Below, in pieces: positions 14,121-14,858 of a stretch of 64,000 nt of DNA (positions are counted from its first letter, which is position 1; every line of letters starts with the position of its first letter). The notes beneath the pieces are model-generated. The model was not told the origin of the DNA, made no database searches, and saw only the letters and a program-made list of their open reading frames with translations. A program made the position numbers and the translations under genes. Origin of the DNA: Escherichia coli (GTDB lineage: Bacteria; Pseudomonadota; Gammaproteobacteria; Enterobacterales; Enterobacteriaceae); NCBI RefSeq assembly GCF_003334355.1, contig NZ_QOWP01000002.1, one strand, 5' to 3'.

Positions 14121-14454
14121 GTTATTAACCCTCTGTTATATGCCTTTATTTGCTTTTTTATGCCACTGCATACTGATTAACCCTCATTAATCAGTCGGCA
14201 AGTCCATTCTCCCCAAAAATGCAGAATAATCCAACACGAATATGATACTAAAACTTTTAAGATGTTTCATTTATCGCTATAGATGTTTCAAAATGTAAAT
14301 GCAAGGGAACTTTTTAAGATTATTGCGGAATGGCGAAATAAGCACCTAACATCAAGCAATAATAATTCAAGGTTAAAATCAATAACTTATTCTTAAGTAT
14401 TTGACAGCACTGAATGTCAAAACAAAACCTTCACTCGCAACTAGAATATCTCCC
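14121..14454 (-). promoter_or_regulatory. ompC promoter / OmpR-binding region, shared with divergent micF
   Basis: AT-rich intergenic DNA between the ompC start and micF; function inferred from the known ompC-micF divergent arrangement; individual OmpR sites not resolved. Confidence 0.45.
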
Positions 14455-14549
14455 GCTATCATCATTAACTTTATTTATTACCGTCATTCATTTCTGAATG
14501 TCTGTTTACCCCTATTTCAACCGGATGCCTCGCATCCGGTTTTTTTTTA
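14455..14549 (+). ncRNA. micF: MicF antisense sRNA
   Basis: Sequence GCTATCATCATTAACTTTATTTATTACCGTCATTCATTTCTGAATGTCTGTTTACCCCTATTTCAACCGGATGCCTCGCATCCGG plus T9 terminator matches micF; divergent from ompC. Confidence 0.9.
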
Positions 14550-14858
14550 CCCTTCTTTACACACTTTCATTATTCTGTGCTACCACAGAAAAACTATAAC
14601 TCTTGTTAACTATTTCACAAATAATTAACATCAGCATAATTTCCAGCAATCTTCGTTTATTTGCAATTAATTTCGTTGGGCTTTTTGTAGGTTATTTGTA
14701 CAGCAAAATGGCGCTTGTACATCTATTTCCCCCAATGCAGGATGATAAATATCACGGGAGAATAGAGAATCATCAATCAGGTAAGAGTCTGGAATTTCAC
14801 ACTGTACCCTTTATACTGCCCTATCACTTCGCGAAGTTTTAACAGGTCATAAACACGA

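Follow-up and report, generated by a model that had tools for sequence, protein, structure and literature searches.

The ompC-micF-rcsD intergenic region of Escherichia coli: a canonical control region whose post-micF spacer very probably serves rcsD-rcsB transcription

The stretch considered here is the 738-bp gap between ompC and rcsD at positions 14121-14858 of a 64-kb Escherichia coli sequence (hereafter, the window), as delimited by the list of open reading frames (ORFs) and the annotation of related genomes; it contains the small RNA (sRNA) gene micF. The first-pass annotation had described it as a 738-bp non-coding gap with micF inside, and both the boundaries and the sRNA were recovered. 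The Rfam model RF00033 (MicF) matched the plus strand at 14454-14547 over its full length (1-94 of 94), scoring 116.8 bits where the gathering score is 79 (E = 1.8e-19), and the 33 nt at the 5' end of micF were identical to the Rfam consensus. MicF RNAs are characterised by pairing of this end with the translation-initiation region of the ompF mRNA; ompF itself lies outside the window. As is typical of MicF, the gene diverges from ompC and precedes rcsD, according to both the ORFs and the annotation. The region was 100% identical to that of E. coli ATCC 8739 and was found in 5377 of the 5426 complete E. coli genomes, once in each and always on the chromosome. The E. coli K-12 ompC-micF-rcsD locus (b2215, b4439 and b2216) has the same gene order and orientation; over the 738 bp, K-12 MG1655 was 99% identical to the window, with seven substitutions and two compensating 1-nt indels, and the K-12 start sites of micF, ompC and rcsD map onto identical sequence in the window. 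All seven substitutions fall within 14449-14675. We are highly confident that the gap at 14121-14858 is the canonical ompC-micF-rcsD control region of E. coli and that its 310 bp downstream of micF act as promoter and regulatory region for rcsD-rcsB, with no further sRNA or protein encoded in them. The locus is the textbook one, and the rcsD promoter and the CpxR box of the spacer are already published.

The spacer between micF and rcsD (14549-14858) is 310 nt long, with a GC content of 0.29-0.41 compared with about 0.5 in the flanking genes, which agrees with the earlier description of some 300 AT-rich nucleotides between the micF terminator and the rcsD ATG. No function had been assigned to these nucleotides in that description, and the RefSeq annotation of ATCC 8739 and MG1655 places nothing in the 310 nt; on this point the description has to be corrected from the literature, which contains a CpxR box (2002), a mapped E. 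coli rcsD start site and a dissected Salmonella rcsDB promoter region (PMC7241856). The rcsD start was placed by Kim et al. (2012; PMC3415461, Table S1) at 2311474 (U00096.2), giving a 36-nt leader. The upstream sequence reported with it, ...CTGGAATTTCACACTGTACCCTTTATACTGCCCTA (its end listed as ...TTTATACTGCCCTA), was located in the window, where its final A is position 14823. The start sites of that table follow one another in the order ompC, micF and rcsD, with none other between micF and rcsD. According to SMRT-Cappable-seq (PMC6131387), a full-length transcript of the rcsD-rcsB operon begins at 2313451 (U00096.3), which corresponds to position 14822 of the window. The hexamer TATACT was found 5-6 nt upstream of the mapped start, where the -10 element of a sigma-70-type promoter belongs. 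The consensus promoter scan did not list this promoter because its -35 element (CTGGAA, 3/6) is weak. As the two E. coli start-site datasets show, RNA polymerase begins transcription 36 nt upstream of the ATG, at A14823, on a promoter with a near-consensus -10 element and a weak -35 element. A perfect 12-bp palindrome, ACTTCGCGAAGT, was also observed at 14826-14837, which covers +4 to +15 of the rcsD transcript; E. coli has it intact, E. albertii and Salmonella do not.

Conservation was assessed across the enterobacteria. One genome per species was scanned for the conserved 5' part of micF, which gave at least 120 loci; 106 of these had enough flanking sequence, and all species counts given below are among these listed matches. 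In every one of the 106 loci, rcsD lay downstream of micF, the micF start being 394-644 nt before the rcsD ATG. The micF-to-rcsD segments were aligned with MAFFT, and column identity was about 90-100% across the 106 species within micF. Downstream of micF, short islands with 80-100% identity over about 100 enterobacterial species lay between stretches at 10-40%. Six such islands, (a) to (f), were delimited (Table 1). Poorly conserved stretches were found at 14615-14648 and 14725-14788, and the length of the spacer differs among genera. Island (f) is the rcsD promoter: TATACT was present in 102 of the 106 species, with 90-100% column identity over TTTATACTG. The rcsD leader inferred from the distance between TATACT and the ATG was about 35-39 nt in Escherichia, Salmonella, Citrobacter and Enterobacter and about 55 nt in Klebsiella and Raoultella; leaders of 80-160 nt, compared with 36 nt in E. 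coli, were seen in Kluyvera, Kosakonia, Buttiauxella and Cedecea. The earlier suggestion that the spacer could hold rcsD regulatory sites was thus upheld, given that 14550-14858 contains both a mapped E. coli start site (14822/14823) and the six conserved islands.

The only feature of the spacer that looks uncharacterised is the dyad TGTACA-N13-TGTACA within island (e). It is unique in the window, in which 0.01 occurrences would be expected. The exact dyad with N13 was present in 47 of the 106 species and a version with N12 in 4 (Kosakonia-group), and at least one TGTACA was found in 79. A listing of the 106 sequences showed fixed half-sites, a fixed spacer length, AT-rich flanks and a free spacer sequence, a pattern that points to a dimeric DNA-binding protein. 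When the dyad was considered as an RNA hairpin, that possibility was rejected: the half-sites are strictly conserved and do not covary, the Salmonella variants carry no compensating changes, and a stem of six AU-rich base pairs closing a 13-nt loop would be marginal. Dyad and -10 element lie 113-117 bp apart in 33 of 51 species, with most others near 104, 125, 137 or 148 bp, and among the listed loci the CpxR box precedes the dyad by about 150 or about 161-163 bp. Steps of about 11 bp, which account for most of the differences between genera, would leave the sites facing the same side of the helix; this is a hint at most, given that the species are related and that a group at 108-109 bp does not fit. 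In Klebsiella pneumoniae ATCC 13883 no TGTACA dyad was found; the aligned position (14692-14722) holds a G+C-rich inverted repeat, CGCCGG-N9-CCGGCG, and behind it a stretch rich in T. The TGTACA dyad is retained in K. oxytoca and Raoultella.

Candidate ligands of the dyad come from the regulators of curli and biofilm genes. Genomic SELEX (systematic evolution of ligands by exponential enrichment) yielded a peak in the micF-rcsD spacer for RcdA (YbjK), a csgD regulator of the TetR type that also binds the csgD and ycgZ spacers; its strongest site, TTGTGTACAttTGTACACAA, has two TGTACA cores (PMC3535384). MlrA binds AAAGTTGTACA-N12-TGCACAATTTT at csgD (TGTACA-N12-TGCACA), a spacing that was confirmed in the MG1655 sequence, and its paralogue BluR binds TGTAC...GTACA at ycgZ. 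The MlrA, BluR and RcdA sites share with the window dyad inverted TGTAC/GTACA half-sites in AT-rich flanks; the spacing differs, being N13 in the window, N12 at csgD (MlrA) and, counted from the TGTAC core to the GTACA core, N9 at ycgZ (BluR). No paper was found that links MlrA or BluR binding to rcsD or that describes the dyad. The protein most likely to bind the dyad would be RcdA, which selects the spacer in vitro, and/or a MerR-like regulator of the MlrA/BluR type, acting from about -114 relative to the rcsD start. That the dyad is an undescribed operator through which such a curli/biofilm regulator controls rcsD-rcsB transcription is a more specific proposal, and it is put forward tentatively, as a possibility that we hold to be rather less likely than its alternatives together.

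A second conserved element, the CpxR box GTAAAGAAGGGTAAA, lies against the end of micF and overlaps the final three T of its T-run. It is the sole GTAAA-N5-GTAAA in the window (0.09 expected), and the exact box was retained in 93 of the 106 species. The box agrees exactly with the consensus for sites of the CpxR regulon, GTAAA-N5-GTAAA (De Wulf et al. 2002), and has already been catalogued: Table S1 of Zhao et al. (2022; PMC9600279) includes this very sequence as the 'ompC' site known from De Wulf et al. 2002, and it was used for the CpxR weight matrix. Table S4 of that study lists it as a candidate common to rcsD (-300) and ompC (-425) with a score of 18.34, among the highest in the table. 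Compared with other CpxR regulon sites, the position is odd, since the box overlaps an sRNA terminator and stands 270-354 bp from the nearest starts (270 bp upstream of that of rcsD and 354 bp upstream of that of ompC). The box may serve ompC as well as rcsD, so that it could connect Cpx and Rcs, both of them envelope-stress systems. It was also observed that TTTACCCCTATTT, inside micF (14505-14517), recurs as TTTACCCTTCTTT at the CpxR box (14546-14558), 41 nt downstream, and this repeat places a third TTTAC half-site within micF.

Further elements of the spacer can be read by comparison with Salmonella. The Salmonella rcsDB region shares with the window the micF-rcsD synteny, a -36 start behind TTTATACTGC, the CpxR-type TTTAC-N5-TTTAC box and the TGCTACC and TATAAC blocks. 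In Salmonella (PMC7241856 and work cited there), primer extension placed rcsD starts 36 and 157 nt upstream of the ATG, RcsB negatively autoregulated rcsDB, and a segment from -270 to -220 was needed for the activation of rcsDB by SirA, which its deletion abolished. The -157 start, RcsB autorepression and SirA dependence have been demonstrated in Salmonella only. Positions were transferred through an alignment with S. enterica subsp. arizonae, whose spacer is 10 nt shorter than that of the window and whose dyad is degenerate (TGTACC...TGAACG). By this alignment, the -270 to -220 segment corresponds to 14579-14629 in the window, and islands (b) and (c) fall within it. E. coli has local inverted repeats here, at 14570-14593 and 14604-14630, of which only the left arms are conserved, so that the conserved feature at these islands is a DNA word and not an RNA helix. 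The conserved blocks at 14576-14612 would be the E. coli counterpart of the Salmonella SirA (UvrY) element, and a similar role in E. coli may be supposed from the alignment. Scans of the spacer for RcsAB-box, IHF, OmpR-like and UvrY motifs gave only weak matches with several mismatches.

The Salmonella -157 start aligns to about 14693 in the window, just upstream of the TGTACA dyad. Island (d), which is conserved in other genera and diverged in E. coli, is likely to represent the -35 region of this distal promoter; inside it, at 14654, the window has C and MG1655 has T. In K-12, a SELEX peak of the RpoS holoenzyme is centred at 2311354 (U00096.2), that is, at ATG-156 or about 14703 in the window, with a SELEX-chip resolution of 100 bp or more. 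A distal E. coli rcsD promoter, perhaps a stationary-phase one, is therefore possible, and the second start at about 14693 may be used in stationary phase.

Several points weigh against parts of this interpretation. The spacing of the dyad is one base longer than that of the csgD MlrA site, and no exact RcdA box (TTGTnnACA) was found in 14121-14858, the one-mismatch matches at 14553-14561 and 14603-14612 lying off the dyad. For the CpxR box, 270 and 354 bp are unusual distances for a response-regulator activator site, Cpx has been reported to affect ompC little or inconsistently, and no published effect of CpxR on rcsD transcription was found in the literature texts searched. As for the distal promoter, the breadth of the RpoS peak has to be taken into account, both E. 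coli start-site datasets show the proximal rcsD start only, and by eye no convincing sigma-70 hexamer pair was seen before 14693 in E. coli.

The boundary between micF and the spacer is an intrinsic terminator. Its arms are CCGGATGC (14521-14528) and GCATCCGG (14532-14539) with the loop ctc between them, and they can be extended to a 10-bp stem at 14519-14541 (14519-14528 with 14532-14541) having 6 G-C pairs; T9 at 14540-14548 follows directly, giving the G+C-rich stem-loop and U-tract expected of such terminators. The perfect hairpin with T9 noted at first reading is therefore present, and it is strain-specific: K-12 MG1655 has GCATTCGG, with one G-T pair, and T8. The K-12 T8 is offset by a compensating 1-nt insertion 25 nt downstream. 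As shown by K-12 Term-seq (PMC7815308), 3' ends occur at 2313170 and 2313176, inside the homologous T-run. The same study reports a K-12 region of Rho-dependent termination that peaks at 2313216 (score 2.78, p = 2.5e-8, from 800-nt windows), which corresponds to 14587 in the window, 40 nt past the 3' end of micF, although this position is coarse. The Rho region is weak evidence that Rho cuts short the read-through from micF, and the few transcripts that pass the micF terminator would probably be stopped by Rho in the spacer; the score could equally reflect the induction of rcsD by bicyclomycin, which counts against this step.

On these data, the spacer might instead be taken mainly as a zone of read-through or attenuation at the RNA level, in which Rho stops the transcripts that escape the micF terminator, and the amount of micF-driven transcription reaching rcsD depends on how strong the terminator is or on CpxR occupying the T-run. 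The position of the Rho peak, the overlap of the CpxR box with the T-run and the variability of the terminator between strains (perfect stem and T9 compared with a G-T pair and T8 in K-12) are all consistent with this. However, rcsD has its own mapped start, at which full-length rcsD-rcsB transcripts begin, the Rho score is modest and derives from 800-nt windows, and the hairpin at 14570-14593 is conserved in its left arm only. Read-through could moreover be a minor overlay on a promoter region and not an alternative to it. We consider this explanation unlikely, although it is the best of the competing ones, and retain the view of the spacer as the rcsD-rcsB promoter and regulatory region.

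A further sRNA or ORF in the spacer had also been suggested, and this suggestion was not supported by the analyses. An additional sRNA on either strand, independent of micF and rcsD, could be imagined in a spacer that is long and AT-rich and has conserved islands, and a minus-strand promoter-like site was present at 14620..14593 (TTGTGA-16-TATAGT). The -35 element of that site is unconserved, however, and only the TAAC part of its -10 element is kept; the promoter scan returned 2 sites compared with 2.9 in shuffled sequences, which is no enrichment. The terminator scan found no terminator-like site in 14549-14858 on either strand. When 13900-15100 was searched against Rfam at E <= 1, only MicF was obtained, plus a sub-threshold chance match over micF itself. 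RNA folding of the spacer was no better than that of shuffled sequences (z-scores of -0.56 and -0.78 for the two strands), and in K-12 Term-seq (PMC7815308) the interval from the micF terminator to rcsD contained no 3' end. The islands are short fixed words with free spacers, which is the pattern of protein sites and not of RNA helices, and the start sites of Kim et al. (2012) include none between those of micF and rcsD. The marks of an independent sRNA gene, namely a promoter with a terminator or 3' end, conservation and a transcript, were thus not found in the spacer, and such a gene is very improbable.

Equally hard to credit is a small protein encoded by the longest spacer ORF, which has 79 aa and a TTG start at 14603-14842 (plus strand), or by a shorter ATG-initiated form of it. 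An exact-sequence look-up of five spacer ORFs showed two of them as 'hypothetical' in GenBank, and none proved conserved in the cross-species comparison. The 79-aa frame is open in the window strain, MG1655 and Escherichia sp. MOD1-EC7003, and it is called a 'hypothetical protein' in some GenBank records of E. coli and Shigella, the 90% cluster having 98 members. Nevertheless, it was rejected as a gene, being unconserved even within Escherichia: it is cut to 48 aa in E. albertii and is lacking from Salmonella, Escherichia sp. E1V33 and two records that carry the label E. coli (E69 and SCPM-O-B-8794). Citrobacter species have nothing but unrelated or differently phased ORFs in its position; that of C. 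koseri, 76 aa long, is in another phase and its N-terminus is unrelated. The TTG start has no evident ribosome-binding site, the ORF spans the least conserved part of the spacer, with indels that are not multiples of three and a column identity down to 10-30% in 14725-14790, and RefSeq makes no call. The ORF lies mostly upstream of the mapped start at 14823 and is therefore not on the known rcsD mRNA. An open frame conserved at the protein level in relatives was thus not found, and the existing annotations are probably an over-prediction that has spread from one annotation to another.

Finally, the low GC content (0.29-0.41), the poorly conserved stretches at 14615-14648 and 14725-14788 and the variable spacer length among genera would suit largely neutral AT-rich DNA, coated in the manner of H-NS and lacking sequence-specific sites beyond the core promoter, but this is scarcely tenable: five islands besides the core promoter keep 80-100% identity in about 100 species, with neighbours at 10-40%, two of the islands are statistically unique words in the 64 kb, one is a published CpxR site, and deletion of the homologous Salmonella segment removes SirA activation (PMC7241856).

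The features of the region are collected in Table 1. In its left half, the divergent ompC and micF promoters are driven by the OmpR boxes C1-C3 and the mar/sox/rob box. The sequences AAAAGTTTTAGTATCATATT, AGCGATAAATGAAACATCTT and TTTACATTTTGAAACATCTA on the minus strand are, we presume, the published OmpR boxes C3, C2 and C1, and the repeat scan found AGATGTTTCA twice in this stretch, 21 bp apart. Both starts are in the data of Kim et al. (2012; PMC3415461, Table S1). For ompC, a start with a 79-nt 5' untranslated region (UTR) is listed there, and its upstream sequence matches the minus strand of 14199-14249; the micF start is given with 495 reads and an upstream sequence ending ...CTAGAATAACTCCCG, which is present in the window with one substitution. 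Outside the region, in the rcsB-rcsC gap at about 18200-18520 of the window, the ORF list alone showed short ORFs in which a translated motif is seen twice, which suggests tandem repeats of the repetitive extragenic palindrome (REP) or bacterial interspersed mosaic element (BIME) type.

Table 1. Features of the ompC-micF-rcsD region and its boundary genes, in window coordinates. CDS, coding sequence.
Feature	Position	Strand	Description
ompC CDS (porin OmpC)	12990-14120	minus	376-aa ORF; annotated ompC in ATCC 8739 and MG1655; start codon ends at 14120; left boundary
ompC 5' UTR	14121-14199	minus	ompC start site at 14199
Presumed OmpR sites C3, C2, C1, common to ompC and micF	14240-14299	minus	reverse complement reads AAAAGTTTTAGTATCATATT, AGCGATAAATGAAACATCTT, TTTACATTTTGAAACATCTA
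micF -10 hexamer	14442-14447	plus	TAGAAT; micF start site at G14455
micF small RNA	14455-14548	plus	Rfam RF00033 match; MG1655 annotates micF at the homologous position
micF intrinsic terminator	14519-14548	plus	10-bp stem, 3-nt loop, T9 (terminator scan; inverted repeat 100% complementary)
CpxR box	14546-14560	minus	GTAAAGAAGGGTAAA; exact GTAAA-N5-GTAAA, 0 mismatches
Island (a)	14548-14560		TACCCTTCTTTAC
Block in E. coli-specific inverted repeat	14570-14593	plus	TGTGCTACC (14576-14584); conservation and inverted-repeat scan
Island (b)	14576-14584		TGTGCTACC
Block with 27-bp E. coli near-palindrome	14592-14630	plus	AAAnTATAAC...TGTTAAC and TGTTAACTATTT-cac-AAATAATTAACA; inverted repeat 92% complementary
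Island (c)	14592-14612		AAAnTATAAC...TGTTAAC
Island (d)	14649-14670	plus	AATTTCTTGTTATTTAGTGCTA; conserved in other genera, diverged in E. coli; candidate -35 region of distal (Salmonella -157) promoter
Island (e)	14692-14721		TATTTGTACA-N13-TGTACA
TGTACA-N13-TGTACA dyad (core TGTAC-N15-GTACA)	14697-14721	none	centre about 114 bp upstream of rcsD start; candidate operator
Island (f)	14789-14819		CTGGAAATTCA...TTACCCTTTATACTGC
Proximal rcsD promoter	14789-14817	plus	CTGGAAATTCA-type -35 region (CTGGAA, 14789-14794) and -10 TATACT (14812-14817)
rcsD 5' UTR, 36 nt	14823-14858	plus	start at A14823 (Kim et al. 2012) or 14822 (SMRT-Cappable-seq)
rcsD CDS	14859-17531	plus	890-aa ORF; annotated rcsD; ATG at 14859; right boundary

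The region itself has little discovery value, and the useful outcome is a negative one, namely that the spacer hides no new sRNA or small protein. The comparative map of 106 species provides a short list of conserved operator candidates for studies of rcsDB expression, foremost among them the TGTACA dyad. So far, the circuit of cyclic di-GMP (c-di-GMP), MlrA and CsgD and the Rcs phosphorelay have been connected via YmgB and RprA. If the dyad is indeed an operator for a regulator of this kind, it would add a direct transcriptional link from the c-di-GMP/MlrA/CsgD circuit to the Rcs phosphorelay.

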